This document shows positions 11,293-51,694 of a DNA stretch of 64,000 nucleotides, piece after piece; within the stretch, counting starts at the first letter, position 1, and the number at the start of each line of letters is the position of its first letter. The position numbers and the translations under genes were made by a program. The notes under the pieces were generated by a model that was not told the DNA's origin, searched no databases, and worked only from the letters and a program-made list of their open reading frames with translations. Source of the stretch: Squalus acanthias (lineage: Eukaryota); contig CM059431.1 in assembly GCA_030390025.1 (NCBI GenBank), positions 124,436,001 through 124,500,000 of the forward strand. The letters run 5' to 3'.

Positions 11293-13035
11293 ACACACAG
11301 AAACATGCACACAGCTACACACATACACATACCTACAGAAACATGCACACAGGTACACACATACACATACCTACAGAAACATGCACACAGTTACACACAT
11401 ACACATACCTACAGAAACATGCACACAGGCACACACATACACATACATACAGAAACATGCACACAGGTACACACATACACATACATACAGAAACATGCGC
11501 ACAGCTACACACATACACATACCTACAGAAACATGCACACAGCTACACACATACACATACATACAGAAACATGCACACAGGTACACACATACACATACCT
11601 ACAGAAACATGCACACAGGCACACACATACACATACCTACAGAAACATGCACACAGGCACACACATACACATACCTACAGAAACATGCACACAGCTACAC
11701 ACATACACATACATACAGAAACATGCACACAGGTACACACATACACATACCTACAGAAACATGCGCACAGGTACACACATATACATACAGAAACATGCGC
11801 ACAGCTACACACATACACATACCTACAGAAACATGCACACAGCTACACACATACACATACCTACAGAAACATGCACACAGGCACACACATACACATACAT
11901 ACAGAAACATGCGCACAGCTACACACATACACATACCTACAGAAACATGCACACAGCTACACACATACACATACCTACAGAAACATGCACACAGGTACAC
12001 ACATATACATACAGAAACATGCACACAGGTACACACATATACATACAGAAACATGCGCACAGGTACACACATACACATACCTACAGAAACATGCACACAG
12101 GTACACACATATACATACAGAAACATGCACACAGGTACACACATACACATACCTACAGAAACATGCACACAGGTACACACATAACATACTACAGAAACAA
12201 TCGCACGGTACACACATATACATACAGAAACAAGCACACAGGTACACACATATACATACAGAAACATGCGCACAGGTACACACATACACATACCTACAGA
12301 AACATGCACACAGGTACACACATACACATACCTACAGAAACATGCGCACAGGTACACACATATACATACAGAAACATGCACACAGGTACACACATATACA
12401 TACAGAAACATGCGCACAGGTACACACATACACATACTACAGAAACATGCACACAGGTACACACATACACATACTACAGAAACATTGCACACAGTACACA
12501 CATACACATCCTACAGAAACATGCGCACAGGTACACACATATACATACAGAAACATGCACACAGGTACACACATATACATACAGAAACATGCGCACAGGT
12601 ACACACATATACATACAGAAACATGCACACAGGTACACACATATACATACAGAAACATGCACACAGGTACACACATACACATACAGAAACATGCACACAG
12701 GTACACACATACACATACCTACAGAAAAATGCGCACAGTTACACACATACACATACATACAGAAACATGCACAGAGGTACACAGATACACATACCTACAG
12801 AAACATGCACACAGGTACACACATACACACAGAGACATGTGCATAGGTACATACATACACATACATACAGAAACATGCACACAGGCACACACACACATAC
12901 ACACAGAAACATGCACGCAGGTACACACATACACACACATACAGAACAAAGCCCACAGGTACAAACATACACATATACACAGAAACATGCACACACACAG
13001 GTGCATGCATTAACATGCACATAGAAACATGCACA
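11293..13035. repeat. Minisatellite with 38-bp and 34-bp units
   Basis: Tandem ACAGAAACATGCACACAGGTACACACATACACATACCT and a shorter ...CACATATACAT variant; degenerates at the right end. Confidence 0.97.
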
Positions 13036-14499: not shown

Positions 14500-15170
14500 G
14501 GGGGCGATTTTGGCCGAATACATTAGGCACTAAAGAGCCTCCGAAGTGGCCAAGATAGGGTCTTAAGCTGCAATGCGGTTTAGCCCGTGTTCAGCACAAG
14601 ACGCTAGCTTGGTAAAGAAGTTGAAATGCGCACTCGGAACAGTCACCCGGAGGATCGTTAAGGGGCTGATTGACAATTAAATTGCCTGCTAGCGCTCATT
14701 AAATAGGCTGAACGTCATTTTGGTGGGTATCGCTTCATTTAATGACCTCTCCTAACAGCGACCAGCTGAACAGGAGTAAACAATTCCTTGCCGAGGATTT
14801 CGAGCGCTACTTAAAGCCATGCTCAGATTTCAATGTTCACTTGCTGATTGAGATTGACTGACTACACTGCGTTTGAAGAGGACTTTTGAGACACATCAGG
14901 AGACTTTCTGGGTCACTTTGTCAAGACTTCACCAACACTCTATCAACATTTTTCTTGGATATTTTCTCAGGAATTCACCTAAAAAGAGTGAGTGCTGTGC
15001 TACTCTACATTATTAGACACGTTACAGGAGTCACCAGGAGAAAGAGAGTGCTTGATCATGGGCATCTTGCTATGGGTCCCCCTTGCTCTGCGTGAGGAAT
15101 TGGAGGAGGAGATGAGGGCAGGTAGAGCAGCACCAGCTGCTGCAGGAGAGAGGGACAGGAGAGCGAGGAG

Positions 15171-16892
15171 TGTAAGGGATTCCTGACCCTGCGTGTCTCG
15201 CAGCCTGTGAGATTCACGCGGCTCTGTGCAGCCTGTATGTCAGTGCGGGTCTAGGCCTGGTTGCCTGTTCTGGTCTCCAGCCAGTCTGGGAACACTAGAC
15301 ACACCTGTGAGTGGTTCGAATCACTCTCCCTTACGGTTCTAGACACTGGACTTAGATGCGAGAGCAGTAATGGAGATAAAACTCATGTAGACTTGGTTTG
15401 AATGGTACGAAATGGAAAATCTTTATTGCATGATACTTAAGATTATGAAATACATGTCATAAGCACAGATTAATGACAGTACAATCTTACAAACAGTTAT
15501 ATAGTCGATCTTAGGGAAACGAGGAACGAACGGCACAAAGTAAATAGGGGCACACATTACAAATATCCTTAATCCTTAAACCCTCCCCTATCAATATCTA
15601 TCCTAAACTAGCTTCGTAGGATCTCGAGACTCATGCTCACCACTCGTGATAACTCGGAGAAATTCCGAATAGCTGATCGGATGTTTTTCACCGCAGCACC
15701 CACGTGTCGGTCAGGAGATCTCCTGGTCCCACTTGTTTACTTGCTTCTGCTGCTCCGGCTAGTAGGCTGGACCGTCTGCTGTGATGAAGACCTGTGTTGG
15801 TTGGCTTAACAGGTACTCTTGGAGCACAGTTGTCAATATCATCGATACGATGTGTTTTCACGTTCCAATCTCCTTGGACACAGTCCCGTTATCGTCGATG
15901 CAATATGTTTTGTTAAAAGTTCAAAATAGAAATCTTCCTGGCGAGGAAAACTTGGCTGATCGACCTACAGGCGCGGTCGGGATTTACTGACCGTGGCGAT
16001 GGATATGGTCTTCCTCTCTTCTCCTCTCATCTCATCTCATCTCATCTCATCTCGGGCCTTTGGTTCCGCTGCCAGTTACCAACATAGGTCTTCGTTACGC
16101 GACACGAGGTAGATCCGAACGGATCAGAAAGTTCAACAGTCTTTTCAGAAGAGGCAACGGGCAAGCAGAAGCCCAACTACGAGTACACAGGAGCAGCCAC
16201 GAGGTTACGAATCGACCGGATAAAAGCACAGGAGCAAGCGAGCGAATGCAAGAGCAAGAGAGCGAATGGACGGTTTGGAGCCTGCAATTATAGTGCAAAA
16301 ATCTTCCGTTTCCCGCCCAACTATAATGTCCATTCTTTGTTTAGGGTTTGGCGCCCAAATGTCTTGTATGGGTGATCTCCGTTCTTAATGGGTTTCGGGG
16401 CTACTCATAAATGTCTGAGTACCTGTTAATATTTCTCCCATTGTTAAATCGGTCGGTGTTCTCCCTGGAGGGGTTTGGGGCTTCCAAGTGTCCTGTATAA
16501 CTACCTGCTAACGGCTCTCTCATCGTAGAGTCGTTGGGATTTTACATATTAATGTCTTTTGGATGGGCCCTTGAGTACTCGGTACAATGGCTTTCCTTTG
16601 TACCTGGGAGACCGATTCCAGTATCTATGTTTATACTGCAAACCCATAATGTCTCGTGTATTATCTTCACTGTGCTGAATCGTTATCGATCTTGCACAAA
16701 TGTTTAATGGAACGCCATCTTGTCTGCCTGTTGAAAAGTCTAGAATGTTGTGTCACGAGGTGCGGCGGCCATTTTACAGGCTGCTTGTGTCCAATTTAAA
16801 CCTGCCAGCATTCTGCTGAAATAAAAGCTGTTTGAACGAAACTTTGTGTTTTCTCCTTATTAATCAAATCGCGATATATTGCGAATTCTACA
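15171..16892 (-). repeat. 3' LTR (1722 bp)
   Basis: Direct repeat of 22967-24688 at a constant offset of 7796; TGTA...TACA termini; short ORF translations identical in both copies. Confidence 0.97.
15422..15427 (-). terminator. Putative LTR polyadenylation signal AATAAA
   Basis: GCAATAAAG on the minus strand, conserved in both solo LTRs. Confidence 0.6.
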
Positions 16893-16904
16893 GTCCCTCC
16901 TGTT
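16893..16904 (-). other. Polypurine tract
   Basis: AACAGGAGGGAC immediately precedes the 3' LTR start (TGTAG) on the minus strand. Confidence 0.65.
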
Positions 16905-17338
16905 GATGCGAATAACTCCGCTTATCGTATCAAAAATCACAGTGGTGAGCAATATTATCTCGATTTCTCTCCGAATCCAGTAAATTAATCCCATAATTTT
17001 TAACTTATCTAGGGTCTCGGTGTCGTCCTTATTTCCCAAGAAAATCACATTTTATATCACCGTAGGCATTATTTGCCCTTAAACTTACACCACTTGTTTT
17101 CCTTCCCGGCGTAACCAGGCCGATACCTCACGCATCACCTGTATATTTGTCTTTTATTCAGGGAAAGGAAAAAAAAAAACAAAACCTAAAACCAAACAAT
17201 CAACACCATCACCAAAATAATCAAACCCCAACTCTTAAAACATGTCGAGTTTCCAACGTATTTACAATCTCTGAAAATCTTATATGAGTACAAACTTCCG
17301 CGGCGCACGCGGCGAGCGGGAGTGACGCCATTTTCCGA

Positions 17339-19690
17339 TTACACGGTGCTCTCATCGTGCACGCGCACGTAACGTTCTCGCCACTCTCCCGTGTTTTCAT
17401 GCTTGGTGAGGCGTTTGTCTCTTTTACAATGTACGACCAATAGGTACACTACAATAAACACTTGGCATACGACTAAAATGTGGGAGGCTATTCTAATCCA
17501 TGAAGGCACTTCAATATTAGTGAACAGATTCCACCACGGTGGAACTACTATGTCCAGAATGTCTGTTCCTATTTCGACAGTTTTCTGCTCTAATGTATAA
17601 AAATGTTTCTGTGATACCGCGACGGCTTTCAGAAGTTTGGTTAAATGTTCAGGGAGAGGGGGAATGAGGTATCCAAAATGTGCGACAAATCGCTGCAAGT
17701 CGGTGAAATTCTCTTTTACTGTGAGATGAACAGTGGATGGTTCAGGGATTGGGATAATTCGCTGTTGTGCTACTTGAACTTCAGCCCTGGGTTTAAAACA
17801 GAAACTGCTGTCACTCACCGGACACCGGCTACGGTTTCCATGCTGGTAGTGTTGCGCTGCAGTGGTAACACAATATGTTCCACCCCCGATGTATGCTACC
17901 TGCGGAGGCACATGATCTTGTGCCATTGCCTCCATGGTGCAATTCATGGACTTGGCGCCAGCCGTTCTGAACCCGCACTGTGGTGTTAAAAAGGCATTCA
18001 AGTGCTGGGGGCACAGTATTATGTGTGCTCCCCTGCCACGACAACCAGAGAGATCTGTACCTGTCATCGTTTGCTCCCAGCGGATGACGTAAGGTGGAAC
18101 CGCTGCGTAACGAATGTGGGCTCCCCCCTGAATGACACCAATGTTCTCTACCCGATACACCGGGGCGGGCTTTGCTGTGTCGCCCAAAACCGGCATGCGT
18201 AATACTATTCCCATAATAGTATGGTTTGAACGTCCGCAGTCCACGGGGACTGGGTAAGCTTCTGAAGCTAGCCTGAGCTGGCACGGACTTAATGCGTTCT
18301 GAAAAGGGTGGAGCGCCCGTAGGTGTTTGTTACTTATCCAGGACGGAACCAAACCTTGTTTTAAATCCTCCAAATTACTGCGGCCCTCGCCCAGTAACCA
18401 CGCCCCGTAAAGCACGCACACCTCGTTCTGCGCAGCTTGATCGGATGCATTCCGATCTTCCCTGATCAGGGCATTTACCGTACGCGCATGTTTCTCCAGC
18501 TCTGCTATAATTTCCTTTAAATGGAGAGTCATGGCTTGGTCCTCGTGTAGACCTGACCCTACCACTTTATTCTCATCTGTTAGAATGTCTTTTAACTGTG
18601 TTTTTAAACCATTAATCTGGGTCTGCAGCTCCACACTGTCTAGAGCGTTGACCACAGATGTCCCTGTGTTAAAAGCAGTGAACGCATCGTTCACCAAACC
18701 CCTTCTTTGCCTCCCTACTTGATCCAAAACTTCCTGCGGTGCGGTGTACAAACTTGTCTTATCAATTTCTGCAAAATCAAACTCGTAAAATTGTCTGAAC
18801 ATCTTGGTCAACAGGACCTGATACAACTGTTCCGTCTTTTTGGGGCACCACTCTGGTAACCGTACCTCAGTGAGATTTAAAATCACCGAGGCCACCGCGT
18901 AATGTACCCCCTGAAATAGTATCTGGTCTGTGGGGACCAGTACCAAACCATTCCCGGGTCCCTTACTAGTTTTAGGGCACCCTTCTTCCTCAGCTAGAAC
19001 CACCGGAATCGTGGGCGGGGCTTTGCGTGGGCGCGTAATGAGCTCAGTGGCATTTACTGGGATCGGGGAGAATGGGGCTCCGCACCCCCTGGTGCTCGCA
19101 TCCCACCTCATCCCCTGTCCGTTATCCTGCCATTGATTAATAAAAAATATGGAGATGCCTTTGGGGCAAACGTACTTTGACCCCCACATACATACATAAA
19201 TCCCCTCATCCGGTTCCCACCATTTGTCCCAACAGACTTTCACTTGTCCGTCTGTCCCCGTAATTGTCCGATGGGTATTATTACCCAGTCGTTCCCACTC
19301 GACCGAAGAGTTTCTCATAGTTTTGCTCAGCTTTCGCAGCCACCAGCATCGGCTCAATGGGACCTTCCCACTACAAGTCAAACAAATCCGTTTGCCGACG
19401 GTGACGCTGATCCTGGGTGCGATGATCCTTACTTTGGGGCACAGTAAAGAAGTCTCTTGGTAGGCAAACCCCGATGTGCTGGAATACTCCGTTGAGTTCG
19501 TTCCCAGCCATCCTGGCCACCTTCCCTTGTGGAAATAGGTGCTGGTCCCCTCTGCCTTCCGTCTTCCGGTCCCATCCACCGCGATGGGGGCCGTGTCCCC
19601 GGAACATCCAAACACCACGACATCCTTGGTGCGGCCTCGATAGGCCAATCCACATCCGATTGCCACGAGCAATACTAGAATTCGTTCCAT
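17339..19690 (-). CDS. env: Envelope glycoprotein: Ig-like domain plus F-type class I fusion protein (~783 aa)
   Basis: Signal peptide MERILVLLVAIGCGLA from ATG 19690; furin site RQRR at 18701-18712; fusion peptide GLVNDAFTAF; heptad repeat; Cys-rich region; TM helix ILVVCQVFIVVYLLVV; short tail; uninterrupted frame. Confidence 0.9.
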   Translation of the reverse strand: MERILVLLVAIGCGLAYRGRTKDVVVFGCSGDTAPIAVDGTGRRKAEGTSTYFHKGRWPGWLGTNSTEYSSTSGFAYQETSLLCPKVRIIAPRISVTVGKRICLTCSGKVPLSRCWWLRKLSKTMRNSSVEWERLGNNTHRTITGTDGQVKVCWDKWWEPDEGIYVCMWGSKYVCPKGISIFFINQWQDNGQGMRWDASTRGCGAPFSPIPVNATELITRPRKAPPTIPVVLAEEEGCPKTSKGPGNGLVLVPTDQILFQGVHYAVASVILNLTEVRLPEWCPKKTEQLYQVLLTKMFRQFYEFDFAEIDKTSLYTAPQEVLDQVGRQRRGLVNDAFTAFNTGTSVVNALDSVELQTQINGLKTQLKDILTDENKVVGSGLHEDQAMTLHLKEIIAELEKHARTVNALIREDRNASDQAAQNEVCVLYGAWLLGEGRSNLEDLKQGLVPSWISNKHLRALHPFQNALSPCQLRLASEAYPVPVDCGRSNHTIMGIVLRMPVLGDTAKPAPVYRVENIGVIQGGAHIRYAAVPPYVIRWEQTMTGTDLSGCRGRGAHIILCPQHLNAFLTPQCGFRTAGAKSMNCTMEAMAQDHVPPQVAYIGGGTYCVTTAAQHYQHGNRSRCPVSDSSFCFKPRAEVQVAQQRIIPIPEPSTVHLTVKENFTDLQRFVAHFGYLIPPLPEHLTKLLKAVAVSQKHFYTLEQKTVEIGTDILDIVVPPWWNLFTNIEVPSWIRIASHILVVCQVFIVVYLLVVHCKRDKRLTKHENTGEWRERYVRVHDESTV

Positions 19691-19702
19691 CCTTCCTTGG
19701 TT

Positions 19703-19730
19703 CCTGTGATCAGATAGAATGAGGTAGCCA
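19703..19730 (-). promoter_or_regulatory. Putative env splice acceptor
   Basis: CTACCTCATTCTATCTGATCACAG|G lies 13 nt upstream of the env ATG. Confidence 0.55.
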
Positions 19731-19878
19731 GCCTCGCAAGAGTCTCTGGCTTTTGTGAAGGGTGAGCGGGTCCCCTGACCTCGCCTCACGTAAATTTCAA
19801 CGTTTGCTGAATAAACTTCCTCTAAACCTAACCTTAAAACTCCCATCATTTTATCGTTTTCTGTTAAAAACACTACAA

Positions 19879-19972
19879 ACTTAGCCTTATTAAAACTTAA
19901 AACTTAACCTTGAACTATAAACTTAAAACTTAACCTTGAACTATAAACTTAAAACTTAGAACTATAACTTTA
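19879..19972. repeat. Short AT-rich tandem repeats between ORF X and env
   Basis: Repeated AAACTTAAAACTTAACCTTGAACTAT-type units. Confidence 0.8.
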
Positions 19973-20001
19973 CAGTGCCGCCCGTTCTCAGGGCGGCCCC
20001 T

Positions 20002-21150
20002 TTAAACTCTGAGAAGGCTGCTGCGAGCTCTTCCCGACGGTGGGAGGGCACTGACCCTTCCCTCTGATCTGCCGCAGCCTGTTGCTGCGCTGACCCTTCC
20101 CTCTGATCTGCCGCAGCCTGTTACTGCTGCGATGTGGCCGGTCTGTACCCAGGTTATCTTAACCTGAAGTCTACGCCTTGGGGCAGTCTGGGGACATGAC
20201 CACATCCTCCTGGGCTGGGGTTCTCTACTTGACCTACGGGGAGTTGCTATGGGCGGGGGTTCCGTGACGGACGGACCGGGTTCCGAGACCTCCAACGGGA
20301 TGACCTGGGGTTCCATCACAGTCGCCGGCTCCGCCTCCGCTGACTCCGCCTCCCTAACCTCGGGGCTGGCAGTTCGTGGCTCCGCCCTGCTCGGCCCAGC
20401 AAGCGGCCCTTCACTCGTGATCTCTGCCTCCCCTGAGGACTGGACGTTCAAAGCGGGCGGCCACATCTCTGGGAGCCACATCGGTACTCTCTGTGCTCCT
20501 ATAGCGGCTGGCCCTGCCTCCTCTAGCTCCTCCCTCCTGTCCTCGGGACCTGCAGCTTGTGTGTCCACCCTGTGTGGATCTCTACCTATAGGCCCCATTC
20601 CCTCCAGACCGTTCCTCAGGAACCACCCGTCATCATCACTATGCTCATCTGCACTATCCTCATCTGACCAGGGTACCCTGGGTTCTTCCTCATCTAACCC
20701 CCAACTCCAGAAAAACGCTGCATGATCGTCCGGGATGTCCCTTCCCCTGATGCAAGCTGCTATGCCTGCCTGTGTGCCTTGTGGTCCTACCTGGGGCTGT
20801 GCTTTCCCATTGGCGGGATTTACCCCTGTAGTTTTCCCCTGCGCACCCGGCTGGTACAGTTTGCATTGGTTTACATCCTCATACTCCCGGCTTTTGGCTA
20901 CCCTGTAGGCTGCTTTTACCTCACTAAGCTGCGCTTCTAGCCTGAGCACGTCTAACTTTCCCATTGATCGGGCGTTCTCCTCCCGCAGGGCCTGCTCTCT
21001 AAGCTGCCCTTCCAGCCCATCTATTTTCCCTATTAAGCGGGCGTTCTCCTCCCGCAAGGCCTGCTCTTTTAACCTGGCCTCCTCACCGCAGACCCCCTCC
21101 TGTGCGTGTCTTTTAAAAGGACACAGGTAGGCAGGCTGCGTGGGCTCTAG
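20002..21150 (-). CDS. ORF X: unknown coiled-coil, acidic and Pro-rich protein in frame with gag (~382 aa)
   Basis: Open from directly after the gag TGA (LEPTQPAYLCPFKR...) to the stop at 20002-20004; no protease, RT or integrase motifs. Confidence 0.7.
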   Translation of the reverse strand, partial: LEPTQPAYLCPFKRHAQEGVCGEEARLKEQALREENARLIGKIDGLEGQLREQALREENARSMGKLDVLRLEAQLSEVKAAYRVAKSREYEDVNQCKLYQPGAQGKTTGVNPANGKAQPQVGPQGTQAGIAACIRGRDIPDDHAAFFWSWGLDEEEPRVPWSDEDSADEHSDDDGWFLRNGLEGMGPIGRDPHRVDTQAAGPEDRREELEEAGPAAIGAQRVPMWLPEMWPPALNVQSSGEAEITSEGPLAGPSRAEPRTASPEVREAESAEAEPATVMEPQVIPLEVSEPGPSVTEPPPIATPRRSSREPQPRRMWSCPQTAPRRRLQVKITWVQTGHIAAVTGCGRSEGRVSAATGCGRSEGRVSALPPSGRARSSLLRV

Positions 21151-21156
21151 TCATTG
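21083..21156 (-). promoter_or_regulatory. Putative stop-codon readthrough signal (CAA UGA CUAG plus 3' hairpin)
   Basis: TGA at 21153-21151 followed by CTAG; downstream complementary blocks CGCAG/CTGCG and CCTGTG/CACAGG. Confidence 0.7.
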
Positions 21157-22962
21157 GGTACTATTAGACGGTCCTGCGGCACCTACGGGGCCGGTTGCGA
21201 CCGCCACCTGTCCACGCCCATTCAAGTCTAGCTTGCGCATGGCTCCTAACACTGCTTCGAGGTCGTCGGGAGGGGTGGGTGCCTTGGCTTCCTTAGCCGG
21301 GACAGGCGCCTGGGCTCGGACCGCGGGATTTTTATCCTTGGAATCCTTCCAAGGGTTCCTGCAATGCTTGCGCCAGTGCCCTGTCTTTCCACACCCGTAA
21401 CAAGCATTACTTGCCTGTGGGGCGCGATTCCCCTCCTGATGCCACTCTCTTTGATACGGGGCTGCGGGTCGTACCTCATGTACTCTTCCCTTAAAGGGAC
21501 GTGTCGTCATACCCCTTATATTACGATAACCTAACGTGAGTCGATTCAAGACCGACTCTTCCGTAAGGTTGAGATCATTGGGATCGAACCATGCTTTTGC
21601 CTGCTCTCTAACGGCTGGTAAACTGTTGGCTATTATGCACCTAAGCTAATGAGTTAAAGCGGCGCCTTCCACATCTTCGCGCTCGGGCGCACCTAGACAG
21701 CTGCGCTCATATACTGGCCACAGCCTGTCGGCAAAAACCTTCGGGGGTTCTCCCTCCATCTGCACTGTCTGTCCCACTCTAGCAAACGGACCTCCGTCGT
21801 TCGCCCCCAACACTTCTAGGACCTCATTCTTTAATTCCTCATAACTCTTGTTTCCCCTCTTGCTCTCGCCTGAGAGACACTGAAGGACCGAGCTGTCTAA
21901 TGAGAACAGCAGCATTTTTGCTGTCTCCCCATCATCGCAGCCGTTAATGGCTGCGGCTTGCTCAACTTCTCTGAAATGTACGGAAGGGTCGTCTATCTCG
22001 GTCAGCTTCCGTACGTGATTTATCATAGCTCTCAGCTGATGTGAACTGTGAGGCAACACCAGCTGTCCGAGGAGATCCCCCGGTTCTTCCCCACCGTTTC
22101 TGCTTGGGCCCCTTTTAATACCCGTTACTGGATACAACGATCCCTTTTCTACTTTCTTTTCAATGGGCTCTTTTGTTTCTTCCATTGCTTCCTCCCTAAC
22201 CCAGGTTTCTGAATAGCTGGGTGGCGCGGAGGGCGCAGTGGCTACTACTTCTTCTGCTTTACTTGGTGGGGATTTTCTAAATCTCTCATTTACTAGCGGC
22301 TGGTGCGCCGACGGATTGATAAGGCACACCATGCCGTTCGCATTGTTCACGGCCTTTTTGAGGTTCTCTATCTCCCTTTGGCAGGCGCTATGGTCGGCTC
22401 CCTGAAACTTATCCTCAAGGGCCAACTTATATGCCGACCTAACCCCCATTAAGCTCTCTTCTTGAGTTCTTATCTGGGCAGCTTGGCGGTTACATCTTTC
22501 CTTTAACCTGCTCTCATTCAATTTTGCCTCAGTGACCTGGCACTCGAGATAATCTATCCTTGTCTTAAGGTGACTGGAGACTTCCTGGCTTTCCTGGTGT
22601 AACTCATTTAAATTCTTAATGAGCACCTCCCCTCCAGAAACCTTCTTCTCCATTTCTCCCTCTAAATGACTGATTCGAGCTACTAGCGCTGTAATGGTCT
22701 GGTTTGAAATCTGAACCTGCCTTTTGTAGCACATAAGCCAGACTGCTTTCTCAAGTGTCTTTTTATGTTCTTTACTATCTGTCCACCTTTCAGCTGCCTC
22801 TAGTGGGCTCTTATCCGCTAACAATTCACTTATCCATTTCTTAGTTAGATTAACCTTTCCAAACACATAATCCGCTATCTTTTCCTGCATAACATTTCGT
22901 ACAGTCATTCCAAAATCTAACACACTACCCTCTCGCTGCCAGTGTCCTGCCGCGGTCGCCAT
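21151..22962 (-). CDS. gag: Gag-like polyprotein (~603 codons) with one internal in-frame TAG at 21646-21648
   Basis: ATG 22962 (MATAAGHW); coiled coil; PSAPPSY at 22213-22233; helical capsid-like region; CYGCGKTGHWRKHC knuckle at 21361-21402; ORFs 21646-23013 and 21151-21549 share a frame. Confidence 0.88.
22944..22961 (-). other. Primer-binding site complementary to tRNA-Arg(UCG)
   Basis: TGGCGACCGCGGCAGGAC lies 5 nt after the 5' LTR and is complementary to ...GUCCUGCCGCGGUCG-CCA, the vertebrate tRNA-Arg-TCG 3' end as recalled. Confidence 0.85.
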
Positions 22963-22966
22963 TTTC

Positions 22967-24688
22967 TGTAAGGGATTCCTGACCCTGCGTGTCTCGCAGC
23001 CTGTGAGATTCACGCGGCTCTGTGCAGCCTGTATGTCAGTGCGGGTCTAGGCCTGGTTGCCTGTTCTGGTCTCCAGCCAGTCTGGGAACACTAGACACAC
23101 CTGTGAGTGGTTCGAATCACTCTCCCTTACGGTTCTAGACACTGGACTTAGATGCGAGAGCAGTAATGGAGATAAAACTCATGTAGACTTGGTTTGAATG
23201 GTACGAAATGGAAAATCTTTATTGCATGATACTTAAGATTATGAAATACATGTCATAAGCACAGATTAATGACAGTACAATCTTACAAACAGTTATATAG
23301 TCGATCTTAGGGAAACGAGGAACGAACGGCACAAAGTAAATAGGGGCACACATTACAAATATCCTTAATCCTTAAACCCTCCCCTATCAATATCTATCCT
23401 AAACTAGCTTCGTAGGATCTCGAGACTCATGCTCACCACTCGTGATAACTCGGAGAAATTCCGAATAGCTGATCGGATGTTTTTCACCGCAGCACCCACG
23501 TGTCGGTCAGGAGATCTCCTGGTCCCACTTGTTTACTTGCTTCTGCTGCTCCGGCTAGTAGGCTGGACCGTCTGCTGTGATGAAGACCTGTGTTGGTTGG
23601 CTTAACAGGTACTCTTGGAGCACAGTTGTCAATATCATCGATACGATGTGTTTTCACGTTCCAATCTCCTTGGACACAGTCCCGTTATCGTCGATGCAAT
23701 ATGTTTTGTTAAAAGTTCAAAATAGAAATCTTCCTGGCGAGGAAAACTTGGCTGATCGACCTACAGGCGCGGTCGGGATTTACTGACCGTGGCGATGGAT
23801 ATGGTCTTCCTCTCTTCTCCTCTCATCTCATCTCATCTCATCTCATCTCGGGCCTTTGGTTCCGCTGCCAGTTACCAACATAGGTCTTCGTTACGCGACA
23901 CGAGGTAGATCCGAACGGATCAGAAAGTTCAACAGTCTTTTCAGAAGAGGCAACGGGCAAGCAGAAGCCCAACTACGAGTACACAGGAGCAGCCACGAGG
24001 TTACGAATCGACCGGATAAAAGCACAGGAGCAAGCGAGCGAATGCAAGAGCAAGAGAGCGAATGGACGGTTTGGAGCCTGCAATTATAGTGCAAAAATCT
24101 TCCGTTTCCCGCCCAACTATAATGTCCATTCTTTGTTTAGGGTTTGGCGCCCAAATGTCTTGTATGGGTGATCTCCGTTCTTAATGGGTTTCGGGGCTAC
24201 TCATAAATGTCTGAGTACCTGTTAATATTTCTCCCATTGTTAAATCGGTCGGTGTTCTCCCTGGAGGGGTTTGGGGCTTCCAAGTGTCCTGTATAACTAC
24301 CTGCTAACGGCTCTCTCATCGTAGAGTCGTTGGGATTTTACATATTAATGTCTTTTGGATGGGCCCTTGAGTACTCGGTACAATGGCTTTCCTTTGTACC
24401 TGGGAGACCGATTCCAGTATCTATGTTTATACTGCAAACCCATAATGTCTCGTGTATTATCTTCACTGTGCTGAATCGTTATCGATCTTGCACAAATGTT
24501 TAATGGAACGCCATCTTGTCTGCCTGTTGAAAAGTCTAGAATGTTGTGTCACGAGGTGCGGCGGCCATTTTACAGGCTGCTTGTGTCCAATTTAAACCTG
24601 CCAGCATTCTGCTGAAATAAAAGCTGTTTGAACGAAACTTTGTGTTTTCTCCTTATTAATCAAATCGCGATATATTGCGAATTCTACA
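22967..24688 (-). repeat. 5' LTR (1722 bp)
   Basis: Direct repeat of 15171-16892, followed on the minus strand by the PBS. Confidence 0.97.
24084..24114 (-). promoter_or_regulatory. Putative LTR core promoter (GC box plus TATAA)
   Basis: GGGCGGG at 24114-24108 then TATAA at 24088-24084; similar arrangement in both solo LTRs. Confidence 0.5.
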
Positions 24689-26055
24689 GGAGGACTCTCA
24701 GCAGGGGGCGCTATCCACCCAGGGTCTTCAGAGGGCAATACACCTACATTCACATGACCCAAGACCAGTGCATGAGGAGGGTGCGCTTTACCAAAGAGGT
24801 CATTACAGAGATCTGTGGCCTTGTGGAACGAAGACTCAGATGTCAAGGCACAGCCAGGACTGCATTGCCTGTGGCAGTCAAGGTCACAGTAGCACTTAAT
24901 TTTTATGCTACTGGAACCTTCCAGGCTGCCACAGGTGATAGAAGTTACATATCGCAATCCTCTGTGCTCTTATGCATAAGGGAGGTTGCTGAGACCCTAT
25001 ACACTCTGAGGAATGACTAATATCATTCCTTATTGCCAGAGAAGACCAGAGGCAGAGAGCTCTAGGGGGAGAAATTTGTGTTAGCCAGTAAAGTTGCTGG
25101 AGGTAACAGTCGCTGAAAATAGGTGCAACGCTAACAGAGCAAAATTCATCTGGGAGGATGGAGACTGTTGGCGCAGCGCTTACCTGCCATGCAACGCCAT
25201 CCTGGTGACGTTGCTGGAGGCATCCAACCCAAAGTTGGTGTGCAGGTGCGGCGTTCGAGCCTCTCACAGCCTCTGGAGGCAAGTCTGTGGAGCTCACAGG
25301 GAATTGAGGGCAATGAAGAGCCCTGAGAATTAAAGTGGCCATGCACACTGAAGCAATACAAATTAAAATGAAGTGAAACAATGCAGTTTTTACATAGGGT
25401 TGCATAGGATATACAGCACAGAAACAGGTCATTTCAGCCCTTTCTGCTTCTTTAAAAAAATATTTAACATTAAAAAGAAGTCCCAAATGTGAATATTCAG
25501 CTCGCATAAGCTAAATTCCCTTCCTAACCTCAAAAAATGGGAAAAATGCCTCAGCACGAACACAAGTGGCTCAACAAGCCAGGGACGGGGCACCCAGGGT
25601 CTCGCACGCAGCACTCCAGCTTTGTGCAGGGCGTCAACACTGCAACACAGGCCCTCTACCCGCAGGGGCCAGAGGCCCTCCAGAAAGAACGATGTGGGAT
25701 TACATTACCGAGGCTGTCACTATGTCGCCCCCACCACCTGGCTCCAGTGCCCAAAGAAGCATCATGACCTCAGACCACTAGTCAAGGTCAGTGAATGCAT
25801 TTTCAAAAGCCACCTCCTACTAACTGCACCACTAGCCTCACACACTGCTCATGCACGACCCCATATCACTCACCTACCAACAATCTGCACCAATCAGAAG
25901 GCACAGCTCCCATTCCTAGCCTTACCTTACCTCCTTCGAGGAGACTGTGCAGATCATTCTTGGCAGGAGTATGGCTGAGCCCTTGGCTAGTGGCGGGGCT
26001 GAAAGGATACAAGATGCTGGTATCCTCATATGTTACTCTCCTTCTGGCATGCACC

Positions 26056-27147
26056 TGGTTGGCAGACAGGAAGCAAAGAGTTGGAATAAATGGGTCTTTT
26101 TCCGAGTGGTAGGCAGTGACTAGTGGGGTACCGCAGGGATCGGTGCTAGGACCCCAGCTATTCAGAATATATATTAATGATCTAGACGCGGGAATTAGAT
26201 GTAATATCTCTAAGTTTGCAGATGACACAAAGCTGGGTGGGCGTGTGTGCTGTGAGGAGGGTGCAGAGAAACTCCAGTATGATTTGGACAGGTTGGGTGA
26301 TTGGGCAGATGCATGGCAGATGCAGTATAATGTGGATAAATGCGAGGTTATCCACTTTGGTGGCAAAAACAGGAAGACAGATTATCATCTGAACGGCAAT
26401 AGATTGGGAGAAGGGGAAGTGCAACGAGATCTGGGAGTCCTTGTGTACCAGTTGCTGAAGGTAAGCATGCAGGTGCAGCAGGTGGTTAAGAAGGCAAATG
26501 GTATGTTGGCCTTCATAGTGAGAGGATTCGAGTACAGGAGCAAGGATGTCTTGCTGCAGTTGTACAAGGCCTTGATGAGACCATACCTTGAGTATTGTGT
26601 GCAGTTTTGGTCGCCTTATCTTAGGAAGGATGTTCTTGCCATGGAGGGAGTGCAGCGAAGATTCACCAGGCTGATACCTGGGATGGCAGGAATGACGTAT
26701 GAAGAGAGATTGGGTCGATTAGGCTTATATTCGCTAGAGTTTAGAAGAATGAGAGGGGATCTCATTGAAACTTATAAAATTCTAACAGGACTAGATAGAC
26801 TAGATGCAGGAAGGATGTTCCCGATGGTGGGCGAGTCCAGAACCAGAGGTCACAGTCTAAGGATAAGGGGTAAGCCATTTAGGACTGAGATGAGGAGGAA
26901 TTTCTTCACCCAGAGAGTGGTGAACCTGTGGAATTCTCTACCACAGAAGGCAGTTGAGGCCAATTTATTAAATATATTTAAGAAGGAGATAGATATATTT
27001 CTTAAGGCTAAAGGGATCAAGGGATATGGGGAGAAAGCAGGGACAGGGTACTGAATTTGGATGATCAGCCATGATCTCATTAAATGGCGGAGCAGGCTCG
27101 AGGGGCCAAATGGCCTACTCCTGCTCCTATCTTCTATGCTGCTATGC
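26056..27147 (+). mobile_element. 5'-truncated CR1 LINE with an open RT C-terminal ORF (26116-27054)
   Basis: SGVPQGSVLGP, KFADDTKL, LEYCVQFWSP motifs; CTATG-type tail. Confidence 0.93.
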
Positions 27148-48236: not shown

Positions 48237-49884
48237 TGTAGAGTTTCGCAATTATCGCAATTCAAAATAACATGAGACAAGCAATTGATCATTTTTGTTG
48301 GGCAAGGTGCTGTCCTGATGATGGGGGACACGGGGGCCTGTAAGGTGGCCGCCGCGCATCGTGGCAGAAGCTTCCAGAGACACAGTGGGCAGACAAGATG
48401 GCGTCGAATATACATTCAGTATGAGATCGGATCGTGCTCGGTGCGCATTGAAAAGGCAGGATGCAACCCGTTTGCGTCCTGAACAATGGCAATGATATAA
48501 GTGCTGGAATCGTTTCCTACGCACAGTAAGGATCGTTGGGCGGGGCCGTCGAGAACCCATCTAGACACATCAATACACAAATACCCCCCCGGCTCAACAA
48601 TGAGAGAGACATTGGCGGGTGATTAAGCCAGTATTCGGGGGGCCCCAAAACCAGTCGAGGAGACGATTCATACACATCCTGGCTGGCTCAACAATGGAGA
48701 AGGTATTAACGGATAGTTGGCCAGTTTCAGGTGTTACCGAAACCCGTTAAGAAGATGATCGCCCCATGCTGGGAGTTTTGGGCGCCAAAATCACACAAAG
48801 AATAAACGTTTAGATTTGAGCGGGAGATAAGGCCGACAAAACAGTATAACTATAGAGGACAAATGTCCATCGGTCTCTTCTTGAACTCTTCCTTGACTCT
48901 GGGCTCTGGATTTGCTTGATTCTCTTGACTCTCATGACGCTGGCTGAAGCTCTCTCTCTTCCTGAAGCTCTTGCTGAACTCTCTTGACTCTTGACTCTTA
49001 GCCGTGCTGGTCGGTTATTCGAGTGTTGGGTGGAGCTCAATCGGAACGAGCCACCTCGACAGGGCAAGTAACAGGGTACACCATCCCGAGTGTCGGTAAA
49101 CGGTGTCCGGACCCAGAGGCCCGAGTGACGAGAAGAAAGACGAGAAGAAAGACGAGAAGAAATTCCACGTGCCGCCACGGTCAGTAAACCCCGACCGCGC
49201 CCGAAGATATAACGACAGAACCCATCTTTGAATTCTACCGACTACTACATGTACCGTTTCCTTTGAATTCTACGGATTGCTGCACGATCCGGTCTGAGGC
49301 CATCAACTGCTTCATGACATCAGGGAGTCTGGCTTGCCTTTCACGGCAGCGAGAGTAAACAAGTGGGGTGCAGAAACCCTCACAACCACGTGACAGTAAG
49401 GCGCTGCAGCGAAACGAGCTGAGTGCCTCACTTTAAATTTCCGAAGTGAGCCGAGTGGTGAGCATGTTTTCTGATCCTACAAATCCAGACGTAGTTTAGG
49501 TATATTGAGGGAGGGTGGGTTTTCTAAGGTTAATGTATAATGTGTTCCCCCTTTTACGATGTGCCGTGTGTTCCCCATTTCCATAGACCAAGTTTTATGA
49601 ACGTGTGTATACTTGTACTCTCTTTGATCTGCGCCTATGACATGTATTTCATGATTTTAGACGCCATGCAATAAAGATATTCATTTTGTGCTATTCAACC
49701 GGGTCTATTTGAGTTTTCTCTGCATTACTGCTCCTTGCATCTAAGTCCAGGTGTCAGAACCGTAAGGGCGAGTGGGTCGAACCACTCACAGGTGCTTACT
49801 GCAAAAAGTCTGGCCGGAGACCAGAGCAAGCAATAGTATAGGCAACGAAGGCCTCACCTCGCACCAGTACCGTGACCCCTTACA
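48237..49884 (+). mobile_element. Solo LTR (1648 bp) related to the 15171-24688 element
   Basis: TGTAG...CCCCTTACA; CTGG TSD (48233-48236 and 49885-49888); collinear similarity to the provirus LTR. Confidence 0.93.
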
Positions 49885-50031
49885 CTGGTTTTGCAGAAAA
49901 AATGGCATCTGCCTCGCTTCACGCCCACTTCCGACACAGAACGCGGCGGCCGCCATACTGGGCAGGTCAGTAGCGCTGCTGTTGCTTGCGCTTGCTGCAA
50001 GTATTTTAATTACCAGGAGTGTGACTTCAAT

Positions 50032-51694
50032 TGTAAGGGGTTTTGTGTCGTGCTTGTATCGCAGGCGGTGCTGGTACGGGGTTAGGCCTTCGCTGCCTAA
50101 TACTATTGCTTGCTCTGGTCTCCGGCCAGCCTTGTTGTAATAAGCACCTGTGAGTGGTTCGACCCACTCGCCCTTACGGTTCTAACACTGGACTTAGGTG
50201 CGAGAGCAGTAATGCAGAGAAAAACTCAAATAGACCCAGTTGAATAGTACGAAATGGAAATCTTTATTGCACAGCGTCCAAGATCATGAAGTACATGTCA
50301 TAGGCGCAAATTAACGAGAGTACAAGTATACATACATTCATAAAGCTTGGTCTATGGTAATGAAGAACGCACGGCACATCGTAAAAAGGGGAACACATTA
50401 TACTTTATCCTTAATAAAACCACCCTCCCTTATCAATACCTACACTACATCTAGATTTGTAGGATCGGGAAACATGCTCACCACTCGTGATACTTCGGAG
50501 AATTTTAAAGTGAGGTGCTCGGCTCGTTTCGCTGCAGCGCCTGACTGTCACGTGTTTTGAGGGGTCTCTGTACCCCACTTGTTTATTTTCGCTGCTGCGA
50601 CAAGCAGGCCAGGCTCCCCGTTGTCATGAAGAACTCGACAGCACTCGGGCCCGGCTGTAGAACTCAAAGAAAAGTCTTCCTGTACCGACACCAGTTGCCG
50701 GTAGAATTCAAAGAAGAGTCTTTGGCCAGTTCGTGCAGTAACCTGTAGAGTTCCAGAAATGGGTCGAATATTTTCGGGCGCGGTCGGGTTTTACTGACCG
50801 CGGCGGCACGTGGATTCTTCTCCTCTTCTTCTCGTCTCGTCTCGTCTCTTTTCTTTGGGCCTTCGGGTCCAGACACCGTTTACCGACCCTCGGGATGGTG
50901 CACCCGGTCACCGGCCTTCGTCGAGGCGGCTCGTTCCGTTTGAGCTCCACCCAACATTCGAATAACCGTCCAGTGCGGCTAAAAGTCCAGAGTCAACAGT
51001 CCAGAGAAACAAGAGCACGAATCAAGCGAATAAGAGTCGAATCAAGAGCATCAGCCGAGATAAGAGAAAAATAAGAGAGCGATGGACATTTGTTGTCTAT
51101 AGTTATAGTGCTGTGTTCCCTTATCTCCCGCCCAAATCTTAATGTTTGTCCTTTGTGAAATATTGGCGCTCAAAACTCCCAGCATGGGGTGATTCTTGTC
51201 TTTAATGGGTTTTGGTACCACCTGAGACTGGCCAACTACCCGTTAATGTTTTCCCCATTGTTGAACCGGCTCGGAGCCTCCCTGGCTGGGTTTTGGGGGC
51301 CCCCGAATACTTGTTTAATCACCCAAGAATGGCTCTCTCATTGTAGAGCCGTGGGGGTATTTGCGTATTGATGTGTCTGGATGGGCCTTCGATTGCCCAG
51401 TACAATGGTCCTTACTTGTGCATGGAAAACGATTCCAGCACTCATATCTTTTGCTATTGTCACAAATGCAAACAGGTTGCATCCTGTCTTTATCAGTGCT
51501 TATCGAAAATGTTTATTCGAACGCCATCTTGTCTGCCCACTGTACTTCTGGAAACTTCTGCCACGATGCGCGGCGGCCATTTTACAGGCTTCTGTGTCCT
51601 GTTTAATCATGACAGCATTTCGTTTAAATAACCTGATCAAACGAATCTGCTTCTATCTCGTTATTTCGAATCGCGATAATTGCGAAACTTAACA
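50032..51694 (-). mobile_element. Solo LTR (1663 bp) of the same family
   Basis: TGTAAGGGG...CTTAACA on +; CAAT TSD (50028-50031 and 51695-51698). Confidence 0.93.

Follow-up and report, generated by a model that had tools for sequence, protein, structure and literature searches.

The element at positions 15171 to 24688 of the window, the 64,000-nt stretch of Squalus acanthias DNA analyzed here, is very probably a single recent integration from a non-autonomous lineage with pol deleted, belonging to an endogenous retrovirus (ERV) that is abundant and apparently still active. The pol-less element is not a novel gene order but a family-wide deletion derivative of a gag-pol-env retrovirus of the same genome. 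Insertion at this locus was very recent, and the form, found about a thousand times, was evidently copied by intact relatives.

Structure of the element

The pol-less form is 9.5 kb long, and the interior of this copy measures 6074 nt. The following features were assigned:

15167-15170, no strand: left TSD copy, GGAG; the bases flanking both LTR ends are identical
15171-24688, sense strand minus: provirus with LTR pair, TSD, PBS, PPT and open env; pol domain absent
15171-16892, minus: 3' LTR of the sense strand, 1722 bp, TG...CA, 100% identical to 22967-24688
16893-16904, minus: PPT, a purine-rich tract abutting the 3' LTR, read directly from the sequence
17342-19849, minus: env, an open frame; 854 aa between stops, counted from 19903, and 836 aa when begun at the first ATG
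17432-17491, minus: membrane anchor of Env
18641-18700, minus: fusion-peptide-like stretch of Env
18701-18712, minus: RQRR furin-type cleavage site of Env
19634-19690, minus: signal-like peptide of Env
20005-20873, minus: pol tail: the 290 codons that end the pol frame, kept in frame and forming the C-terminal portion of ORF X
20874-21118, minus: filler of 245 nt that replaces 3620 nt of pol; an 82-aa coiled-coil-like stretch
21119-21150, minus: first 10 codons of the pol frame, with which ORF X starts; they follow immediately on the gag/pol boundary stop
21151-21153, minus: gag/pol boundary stop, normal for the family
21154-21645, minus: C-terminal part of gag, 164 codons, which in this copy is severed from the remainder
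21361-21402, minus: CCHC zinc knuckle; the motif is seen, with Pfam zf-CCHC at E 0.022, below the cut-off
21646-21648, minus: premature in-frame stop in gag, private to this copy
21649-22962, minus: N-terminal part of gag, beginning at the first ATG, which overlaps the PBS
22944-22961, minus: PBS, 18 nt, 5 nt inside the 5' LTR; complements the 3' end of tRNA-Arg(TCG) plus CCA
22967-24688, minus: 5' LTR of the sense strand, 1722 bp, TG...CA, 0 differences from the 3' LTR
24689-24692, no strand: right TSD copy, GGAG; the bases flanking both LTR ends are identical

The hallmarks of an LTR provirus are thus all in place: direct LTRs with TG...CA ends, a short TSD, a tRNA-complementary PBS and a PPT. 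The original prediction had described LTRs without differences, a clean 4-bp TSD, a PBS, a PPT and an intact env, and alignment of the LTRs, the GGAG on both sides, the tRNA-Arg(TCG) match, the purine tract and the open env frame of 836 to 854 aa confirmed each of these. The genome contains a tRNA-Arg(TCG) gene (identified by ARAGORN as tRNA-Arg tcg) to whose 3' end, with CCA added, the PBS is perfectly complementary, and the PBS-complementary pattern has 442 genome matches, located in tRNA gene arrays. Retroviral gene features are the CCHC motif in gag and an env of the cleaved class I type, with pol domains present in the long relatives only.

The interior had also been predicted to contain no protease, RT, RNase H or integrase, and Pfam searches of all frames, 19.9-21.2 kb included, indeed returned none of these. 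No PR, RT, RNase H or IN match was obtained in the four main frames (E<=1), and the other 50 six-frame fragments of at least 45 aa from the 6074-nt interior contained no pol domain at E<=0.01. With RT and IN absent and the cis signals (LTRs, PBS, PPT) kept, the element is a non-autonomous ERV.

The gag reading frame had been read only in part correctly: the boundary stop at 21151-21153 is real, and the additional stop at 21646-21648 had been missed. This extra stop sits upstream of the CCHC knuckle, and all 11 of the other copies inspected, 8 of them pol-bearing and 3 pol-less, have a sense codon at its position. Because gag is interrupted in this way, full Gag is not supplied by this copy, and the earlier statement that the element supplies Gag and Env fails here for Gag. 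The gag of an intact long copy has features like those of Retrotrans_gag/Ty3_capsid/zf-CCHC clusters (score 0.92), which serves as a lead only.

Env is predicted to fold like paramyxovirus F, since its AlphaFold model matches the F proteins of paramyxoviruses and pneumoviruses with a best E of 1.9e-11. At the sequence level Env gave no match to PF00523 (Fusion_gly) in Pfam at E<=1, and none was found at E<=0.1 in the 12 longer-matching of the 50 relatives found; one relative matches Baculo_F at E 0.0011, below the cut-off. Searches of the PDB with Env, by sequence and by profile, returned nothing below E 0.006. The closest homologues of Env that carry a name point to an elasmobranch as the probable host. 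The env frame is full length and without stops in all 54 scored genomic matches, at least 13 of which adjoin an open X. It is likewise open in all four pol-less interiors fetched, and open from the signal-peptide Met in six of eight long copies, being broken in the other two.

Pol-bearing relatives and the origin of ORF X

The full-length form of the family is about 12.9 kb long and is organized as LTR-gag-stop-pol-env-LTR; gag and pol share a frame, and a single stop lies between them. Its pol ORF of 1507 aa contains RVP, RVT_1, RT_RNaseH(_2), RNase_H, Integrase_H2C2 and rve, including two RNase H-like regions (RT_RNaseH_2/RT_RNaseH at 470-602 and RNase_H at 650-793). A coding-competent partner therefore exists in the genome, in the form of long copies with approximately 99% identical LTRs and open PR-RT-RH-IN. 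The pol frame is open in 3/3 long copies read end to end, gag is open in 7/8 long copies (fetched as best matches), and TSDs are perfect in 7/8. Outside gag, pol and env, three long copies have no further sense-strand frames of at least 100 aa. Frogs and coelacanth have the nearest relatives found for pol, which are 42-44% identical, and in comparison with the PDB the Ty3, MLV and foamy-virus enzymes score about equally.

Alignment to this form and frame arithmetic resolve ORF X into three pieces: 10 codons of pol, 82 of filler and the 290 terminal codons of the 1507-codon pol ORF. The view that the pol position holds a different ORF, and that the element does not look like a simple deletion, is not supported, as ORF X is mostly pol frame, 10 + 290 codons around the filler. 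The deleted 3620 nt cover PR-RT-RNase H-IN and the replacement keeps the frame, with a net loss in the pol-less form of 3375 nt, or 1125 codons. What remains of pol downstream is the stretch after the integrase SH3-like domain, by the domain limits of the long pol. Pol tail and env together have 97.4-98.5% aligned identity to long-copy internal positions from 5468/5469 on, and change in the pol tail is about neutral (3 synonymous and 10 non-synonymous differences). The 48 nt leading up to the junction differ at 8 positions from each of three long copies and at 1 and 4 positions from two pol-less copies.

ORF X is open in the four pol-less interiors fetched. It is full length at 108/108 scored places and without a stop at 105 of these, the scored places being best matches in which frameshifted copies are under-sampled. 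Length variants range from 369 to 408 aa, and all are open frames. ORF X has no family in the protein atlas and a low 'recognition' value of 1143. The filler contains a 69-nt tandem duplication (20945-20998 and 21014-21067) and is present in more than 40 identical copies dispersed across the genome. It had no blastn match to the long form at word size 7; its best E was 1.3 against gag by BLASTP, and 0.27 by tblastn of its six frames against a long copy and the remaining part of the window.

Copy number, integration and age

Junctions were counted over the whole genome as exact patterns allowing up to 2 mismatches, and reversed-pattern controls gave 0. The deletion junction has 1101 genome matches dispersed over all large contigs, the pol-start (pol-bearing) junction 2141, the PBS/LTR boundary 2251 and the PPT/LTR boundary 28-mer 3163. 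The pol-bearing junction is thus the commoner of the two. The original prediction was to fall if most family copies carried pol and the locus were at the same time a unique rearrangement or misassembly; pol is indeed present in most copies, and the locus is not unique, given 1101 identical junctions. Contig C1 has 22 exact deletion junctions below 123.3 Mb, and for 19 of these an exact PPT/LTR boundary lies approximately 4.2 kb away, as expected.

At five pol-less loci the 4-bp TSDs are perfect and differ from one another (GGAG, AGTG, CCCT, ATCT and GCTG). Since each of these loci has its own TSD, the pol-less form was reverse-transcribed and integrated, and since it has no pol, the enzymes were necessarily supplied in trans. 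The proposal that the element was copied in its pol-less form with enzymes supplied in trans is therefore upheld by the 1101 junctions, the five TSDs and the pol-bearing partners with open frames. LTR pairs differ by 0-6 mismatches in 12 pairs, a biased sample chosen as best LTR matches. More generally, frames, LTR identity and trees were all studied on best matches, a choice biased toward young, intact copies.

Not all junction-bearing copies are simple proviruses. Among 10 exact junction places on C1-C3, sampled in listing order with 201-nt edge samples, both LTR edges lay within 100 nt of the prediction in two, one edge in two and neither in six. With LTR edges mostly away from the predicted positions, many junction-bearing copies are rearranged, nested, truncated or length-variant. 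Tandem LTR-interior-LTR-interior-LTR arrays also exist in the genome, so part of the copy number is due to DNA-level duplication.

Three copies matching a junction-variant probe are 4%, 19% and 24-33% diverged. The same 5' junction is present in all three of these probe-selected copies, and the 3' junction is also kept in the one whose fetched stretch reaches it. Because the 19% and 24-33% diverged copies keep the same junction, the pol-less lineage is old. Hypermutation was considered as a cause of the divergence of these 'old' copies and was rejected, the substitution spectrum being mixed. Their filler frame is open, with 9 and 11 synonymous versus 14 and 13 non-synonymous codon differences.

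In public runs from three organism codes there are contigs that span the deletion junction with 0-1 differences, and long-form continuations were likewise found in public-run contigs of three organism codes. In two runs that were guessed to be RNA, contigs lie deeper over env, an observation unusable as evidence. The four public runs consist of contigs, which cannot show expression, and no splice joint was seen in them.

Intermixing of the two forms and a proposed mechanism

In the tail+env tree the four pol-less copies are not a clade (AU p=0.0058), and one of them pairs with a long copy at an SH-aLRT of 99. The deletion junction itself is of single origin. This intermixing of pol-less and pol-bearing copies in tail+env indicates recombination between the forms, which would most simply have followed co-packaging of both.

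A mechanism consistent with these observations is as follows. The 3620 nt of pol encoding protease, RT, both RNase H-like regions and integrase were replaced once by the 245-nt filler, in a way that kept the frame and every cis signal together with the rest of the genome (LTRs, tRNA-Arg PBS, leader and gag, pol tail, env and PPT). The pol-less genomic RNA would then be co-packaged with full-length RNA into particles from cells expressing both forms, the cell type being part of the same supposition. Gag-Pol of the full-length copies would reverse-transcribe and integrate the pol-less RNA, giving rise to the 4-bp duplications, and template switching between the co-packaged RNAs may keep the shared parts, including env, approximately 99% alike. 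The family is probably active at the present day.

Alternative explanations

We consider it unlikely that the two forms are a stable two-component system in which the pol-less genome, rather than being a mere parasite, supplies Gag, Env and a functional Gag-X readthrough protein. In particles of such a system Gag-X, with the filler coiled coil and the pol tail, might replace Gag-Pol and aid the spread of the short genome, or long copies defective in env or gag might be complemented, both of which we regard as improbable. The age of the lineage, with the same junction at 19% and 24-33% divergence, fits this explanation, as do the in-frame deletion and filler, the 105 of 108 places without a stop in X, the open frames of all its length variants, and non-synonymous changes in the filler of old copies that are fewer than the neutral expectation of approximately 1:3. 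The two of eight long copies with broken env could be complemented by pol-less copies. Against these points, the pol-tail part of X changes about neutrally, X has neither a family nor a high 'recognition' value, and the scored copies are best matches among which frameshifted ones are under-sampled. An in-frame junction has a prior of 1 in 3, and exchange with long copies accounts for the conservation of Env in the pol-less ones. We likewise consider it unlikely that the pol-less and pol-bearing genomes form a long-lived bipartite retrovirus, the short one being kept for Env, Gag and a Gag-X coiled-coil module acting in assembly or packaging, and both persisting by co-packaging and recombination instead of one living off the other.

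The filler might also be a captured piece of a host gene, making the element a transducing retrovirus of the acute-transforming type. In transducing retroviruses foreign sequence is in frame with the viral polyprotein, and here too the foreign sequence that replaces pol reads in frame with it. The filler is nevertheless just 245 nt of low complexity, and it has no homologue among the longer proteins searched. Probes of the filler ends for a non-viral context gave only variant viral copies: one had 5 matches, of which 3 were fetched and were all viral, and the second had 73 matches, all with the same single variant base beside the filler and with known pol-less places among them. By these searches of limited reach a host source was not found, and we consider host-gene capture very unlikely. 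Spread of the pol-less form mainly by segmental or tandem DNA-level duplication or unequal crossing-over, rather than by reverse transcription, is less probable still. An array on contig C792 with three LTRs spaced 7792 nt apart and shared between units, and three junctions on C1 approximately 7.72 kb apart, are what such duplication would leave, but the five pol-less loci with their own perfect TSDs have unrelated flanks and lie on different contigs or at different positions, and the 1101 junctions are scattered across every large contig. The notion that a normal provirus was rearranged after insertion at this one locus, or was misassembled, has nothing beyond its prior in its favor and a negligible probability; it is refuted by the recurrence of the identical junction 1101 times, in old diverged copies and in independent public-run contigs, and the identical LTRs and intact TSD also speak against it.

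Comparison with known systems

Mouse ETn/MusD, IAP I-delta-1 and the deleted forms of human HERV-H are ERVs with internal deletions that are amplified through complementation in trans by coding-competent relatives and have lost env or all coding capacity. The pol-deleted lineage described here differs from them in that env is kept and open. In chicken, EAV-HP likewise includes integrated LTR-gag-env proviruses with the entire pol missing; the copy described in the excerpted text of PMC3554524 also lacks parts of gag and env, whereas here pol alone is replaced, in about a thousand copies. In cattle the ERVK[2-1-LTR] family, according to excerpts of PMC10924933, comprises a competent C-type of about 10 kb and a defective D-type of about 6.8 kb. 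As in the present family, an autonomous form and a shorter one differ by a poorly alignable central segment, the D-type is mobilized by the C-type and is very successful, a 'parasite of parasite', and differences cluster at the boundary of that segment (here 8/48 nt). As far as those excerpts go, the D-type is without any functional genes, in contrast to the open gag (in most copies), env and in-frame Gag-X found here, and the systems differ in virus lineage, host and Env type, with the pol-bearing junction being the commoner one in our case. A pol-deleted ERV copied in trans is thus an already known kind of genomic parasite, while the virus lineage in which it occurs here is little studied.

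Epsilonretroviruses have gag and pol in one frame with a single separating stop, as in the present family, and carry accessory ORFs beside gag-pol-env. Walleye dermal sarcoma virus and walleye epidermal hyperplasia virus also turn up when the fold of our Env is compared, with their predicted Env structures at ranks 9 and 19 of the matches. In contrast to epsilonretroviruses, the three long copies have no accessory ORF of at least 100 aa, and in the PDB comparison pol is about equally close to Ty3, MLV and foamy-virus enzymes.

Lokiretroviruses, as described in excerpts of PMC7947760 and PMC9040795, are organized as LTR-gag-pol-env with a dual RNase H region and an Env resembling the F glycoproteins of Mononegavirales, and their reported host range includes frogs and coelacanth. 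The present family shares with them gag-pol-env, the dual RNase H (common also to canonical retroviruses) and pol relatives in frogs and coelacanth, and differs in that its Env similarity lies in the predicted fold alone, with no PF00523 sequence match. The signs of a lokiretrovirus (the similar Ty3, MLV and foamy-virus scores and the frog and coelacanth pols) may be taken as leads only. The excerpts of these two papers make no mention of cartilaginous fishes as hosts, and those of a preprint on anamniote Env deal with Env of the gamma type, which the present Env is not. A full-text literature search found no description of this family for cartilaginous fishes by title or abstract start, and the family appears to be unreported for these animals.

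As a defective retroviral genome found in nature the lineage is a clean case: it lacks pol alone, its gag and env are open, and it accounts for approximately a third of the family's internal copies, of which there are roughly 3200. Alongside the bovine C/D-type system, the lineage shows that the 'parasite of parasite' dynamics of ERVs are not confined to mammals. The intermixing of the two forms in env despite a single-origin deletion is a genomic footprint of recombination that is rarely visible in endogenous families. On the assumption that all copies are full length, the family would amount to approximately 1% of the 3.7-Gb assembly, as an order of magnitude. Whether the pol-less genome is a parasite or a component of a bipartite virus, this would be a lokiretrovirus-like virus with an F-type Env that remains active in a cartilaginous fish and has thousands of young copies. 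With its identical LTRs, many open frames, predicted paramyxovirus-F-like Env fold and frog and coelacanth pol relatives, the family bears on the origin of retroviral envelopes.

Structure of the provirus

The window belongs to a 3.7-Gb eukaryotic assembly. A repeat scan with base-by-base extension delimited two LTRs bounded by TG...CA and flanked on either side by GGAG. All long frames of the 6074-nt interior lie on the minus strand, with the following features.

15171-16892: direct repeat (LTR) 1, 1722 bp
22967-24688: direct repeat (LTR) 2, 1722 bp
22944-22961, minus: primer binding site (PBS), 18 nt, beginning 5 nt internal to the 5' LTR; complementary without mismatch to the final 15 nt of a tRNA-Arg(TCG) gene in the same genome together with CCA
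LTR edge to 21649, minus: upstream part of gag, ending at a stop (21646-21648)
To stop 21151-21153, minus: downstream part of gag, 164 codons in the same frame, including a C-X2-C-X4-H-X4-C knuckle
After stop 21151-21153, minus: ORF X, 382 codons, the same frame again
minus: env, 854 codons in a different frame (frame reading)
Adjoining the 3' LTR: purine tract (PPT; sequence reading)

The LTR alignment and the six-frame profile search both bore out the original prediction of a recently inserted, pol-less element with matching LTRs, a target site duplication (TSD), PBS, PPT and an open env. The LTRs show 0 differences over 1722 bp, and no Pfam match to protease, RT, RNase H or integrase was found in the four main frames of the interior (E<=1) or in its remaining 50 six-frame fragments of >=45 aa (E<=0.01). 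The first gag stop, which lies within gag upstream of the nucleocapsid knuckle, is private to the window copy, since a sense codon occupies that position in all 11 other copies.

The 3'-end pattern of the tRNA-Arg(TCG) that fits the PBS has 442 genome matches, and large tandem arrays of these genes with a period of ~1.62 kb were seen on contig C26 of the same assembly (G000) at ~38.99-41.88 Mb (L046, L047). Elsewhere in the window, 49452-51686 is LTR-like and matches parts of the element's LTR at 69-78% identity, the piece 49452-49833 being inverted; it is an older member of the family. An open 313-codon frame at 26113-27051 (+), which matches RVT_1 in part (E 1.5e-10), lies 1.4 kb past the right TSD on the opposite strand; it is a different retroelement and not part of the provirus. 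A minisatellite at 11297-12995 (46 copies of a 38-nt unit) accounts for the strong skew in GC/AT at 10-14 kb.

Origin of ORF X

Of the 3652 candidates from an LTR search of the assembly, the best 40 were scored, and 39 of these were full-length matches at 98-100%. Matches were spaced by ~11.15 kb at nine loci and by ~7.8 kb at three (the window, one on contig C4 and a triple-LTR array on contig C792), and eight 11.15-kb copies were compared with the window together with the other 7.8-kb copies. Two window segments, 15171-20873 and 21119-24688, align with the long copies, which hold 3620 nt between them in place of the window's 245 nt. In order, the long copies carry gag (604 codons from the LTR edge), a single stop, an in-frame pol ORF of 1494-1507 codons and env. 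The pol ORF contains RVP, RVT_1, RT_RNaseH_2/RT_RNaseH, RNase_H, Integrase_H2C2 and rve domains and an SH3-like end at residues 1182-1224.

The replaced block begins 32 nt into the pol frame and finishes within codon 1218. As the difference in length (3620 - 245 = 3375 = 3 x 1125) preserves the reading frame, ORF X is made up of 10 codons from pol, 82 from the filler and the final 290 of pol. The pol-less form is thus a deletion with filler rather than a new gene at the pol position, and the suggestion in the original prediction that a different ORF had replaced pol does not hold. No relative of the filler was found in the long form, in gag, in translated frames of one long copy or the rest of the window, or among the longer proteins of a 5.8-billion-protein collection; ORF X as a whole had no look-alike family in the protein atlas.

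Local misassembly of the deletion junction is ruled out by public sequencing runs under three organism codes, in which contigs span the junction with 0-1 differences; long-form continuations at both junctions occur in runs of three codes, though one of the runs may be the assembly's source, so that not all are independent.

Integration of the pol-less form

Perfect 4-bp TSDs were found at five pol-less loci, and perfect duplications at 7 of 8 long copies.

TSDs of pol-less loci
Window: GGAG
C4 copy: AGTG
C792 array, as a unit: CCCT
Two more copies, on contig C1: ATCT and GCTG

Because these duplications are distinct, the pol-less form must have undergone repeated reverse transcription and integration, and since it lacks RT and IN the enzymes came from elsewhere. 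Judged by their LTRs, which are 99% identical to those of the pol-less form, the pol-bearing copies would be the obvious source. The central inference of the original prediction, mobilisation in trans, therefore stands.

Age and coding capacity

The LTRs of 12 pairs differ at 0-6 positions; the pairs were picked as best LTR matches and so represent the youngest copies. The window copy's LTRs, without a difference in 2 x 1722 nt, set a 95% upper bound of ~0.9 million years on the age of that copy, at a neutral rate of 1e-9 per site per year assumed for this host.

Open frames
Pol-less interiors: gag 3/4 (the window is the exception), ORF X 4/4, env 4/4
Long copies: gag 7/8, pol 3/3 read end to end, env 6/8 from the signal-peptide Met

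Genome-wide, all 108 scored ORF X matches (best 108 of 11578 candidates) were full length and 105 lacked a stop, with 93-100% protein identity and open length variants of 369-408 aa. All 54 scored Env matches (best 54 of 14021) were full length, stop-free and 99-100% identical; at least 13 of them directly adjoin an open X and so sit in pol-less copies. Being the best of their candidates, both sets are biased to intact copies.

Selection and exchange between the two forms

Differences in env among eight in-frame sequences were strongly synonymous; with 3.3 non-synonymous per synonymous site, rough dN/dS values are 0.14 and 0.05. The pol tail (the last 290 pol codons) inside X appeared about neutral.

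Synonymous and non-synonymous differences
env, eight copies, singletons: 30 and 14
env, eight copies, shared: 17 and 3
env, four pol-less copies, singletons: 30 and 9
pol tail inside X, all differences: 3 and 10

The deletion junction arose once. In the tail and env tree the four pol-less copies form no clade, and an AU test rejects their grouping (p=0.0058): SH-aLRT 99 supports the pairing of one with a long copy, and the window copy clusters with three long copies (support 92). The gag tree does not decide (AU p=0.13 for holding the pol-less copies together). A junction of single origin in copies that do not cluster in tail and env means that the two forms must exchange sequence, and this exchange explains why a defective genome has an env that appears to be under selection. 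The simplest route would be a switch of template between co-packaged RNAs. Comparison of the 48 nt immediately preceding the 5' junction gave 8 differences to each of three long copies, versus 1 and 4 for two pol-less copies, and the remaining gag is ~1% different. This is the pattern expected if recombination were homogenising all but the close neighbourhood of a non-homologous block.

Older pol-less copies

Filler-end probes for a non-viral context found no host source, and their matches were variant viral copies. Three of these, picked for probe match and not a random sample, were 4%, 19% and 24-33% diverged from the window across gag end, junction and filler, with a mixed substitution spectrum. 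The 5' junction is the same in all three; the 3' junction is also kept in the most diverged copy, the sole one whose retrieved stretch reaches it, which has one 69-nt filler unit versus two in the young form. The pol-less lineage is thus much older than the present burst. In both older copies the filler frame is open, and its synonymous to non-synonymous codon differences (9:14 and 11:13) hint at some constraint, the numbers being small. The age of the lineage keeps alive, short of demonstrating, the two-component system of the original prediction, in which a partner might supply Pol. A pol-less sub-lineage whose base right at the 3' junction (20873/20874 in the window) differs was seen at 73 places genome-wide.

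Copy number and integrity

Exact patterns were counted over the whole assembly with <=2 mismatches; reversed-pattern controls gave 0 in every case.

Whole-assembly matches
Deletion junction: 1101
Start-of-pol junction (long form): 2141
PBS/5' LTR boundary: 2251
PPT/3' LTR boundary: 3163

On C1 below 123.3 Mb, an exact PPT/LTR boundary accompanies 19 of the 22 exact deletion junctions listed, at the expected ~4.2 kb (18 within ~130 nt, one off by 740 nt), so X-env is at normal length in most junction-bearing copies. For 10 junction places taken in listing order, both LTR edges lay <=100 nt from prediction in two, one edge in two and none in six, one of which had gag fragments at the expected edge position; copies of variant length, nested insertions and rearrangements are thus common.

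Tandem pol-less arrays (LTR-interior-LTR-interior-LTR, period ~7.7-7.8 kb) were observed at C792:39495-56799 (G000; L004, L005) and as three deletion junctions in series on C1 (143657923, 143665646, 143673364). Since a single TSD (CCCT) bounds the C792 array, it arose during or after one integration. The long-form pol-start junction recurs every 2926 nt on contig C2 (G000) at 19916827, 19919753 and 19922679, a spacing that points to a fragment in tandem repeat or to a further deletion derivative.

Affinities of Env and Pol

In Env, a signal-like peptide, 10 N-glycosylation sequons and long helices were recognised, along with an RQRR site that precedes a hydrophobic stretch, and a membrane anchor at the C terminus. 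The sequence matches of Env are cartilaginous-fish proteins only (best 75% identity, a skate protein), and sawshark gene models contain fused Env fragments. Public gene models P0002, P0003, P0008 and P0039 join Env fragments to proteins named at source as Niban-like or cadherin-related, and to others bearing C2H2 zinc-finger and F-box Pfam domains; these are probably chimeric predictions over ERV insertions.

An exhaustive HMMER search gave 50 cluster representatives, and an AlphaFold model from 39 of these sequences averaged a pLDDT of 62.5, its confident blocks being model residues 240-310 and 420-650. The best PDB matches of this predicted structure were paramyxovirus and pneumovirus F proteins, led by hPIV3 F (E 1.9e-11, probability 1.00) and followed by RSV, Langya and NDV F. 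Against predicted viral structures, the model resembled arli-, chu- and lispivirus glycoproteins, baculovirus F, paramyxovirus F and walleye epsilonretrovirus Env; one Env relative matched Baculo_F below the cut-off (E 0.0011).

Against Ty3, MLV/XMRV and foamy-virus enzymes Pol had similar scores, its integrase part being nearest PFV integrase. Its nearest full-length relatives are from frogs and coelacanth (42-44% identity), versus ~30-32% for gamma-like ERV pols. F-like Env and dual RNase H are described as lokiretrovirus hallmarks in the available portions of PMC7947760 and PMC9040795, which make no mention of cartilaginous fishes as hosts. The present element has both traits, the likeness of Env being one of predicted fold and not of sequence, and may belong with the lokiretroviruses.

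Comparison with known non-autonomous ERVs

ETn/MusD, IAP I-delta-1 and HERV-H are further examples of the same kind. In bovine ERVK[2-1-LTR], the available text of PMC10924933 describes competent (C-type) and defective (D-type) forms that differ by a non-alignable central block, with the D-type dominating new insertions; for chicken EAV-HP, that of PMC3554524 describes the absence of the entire pol gene. The present element differs from these in losing pol alone and in frame, in retaining open gag and env, in belonging to an old lineage, and in carrying an F-type Env in the genome of a cartilaginous fish. Its standing as a further variant among the known non-autonomous ERVs is well supported.
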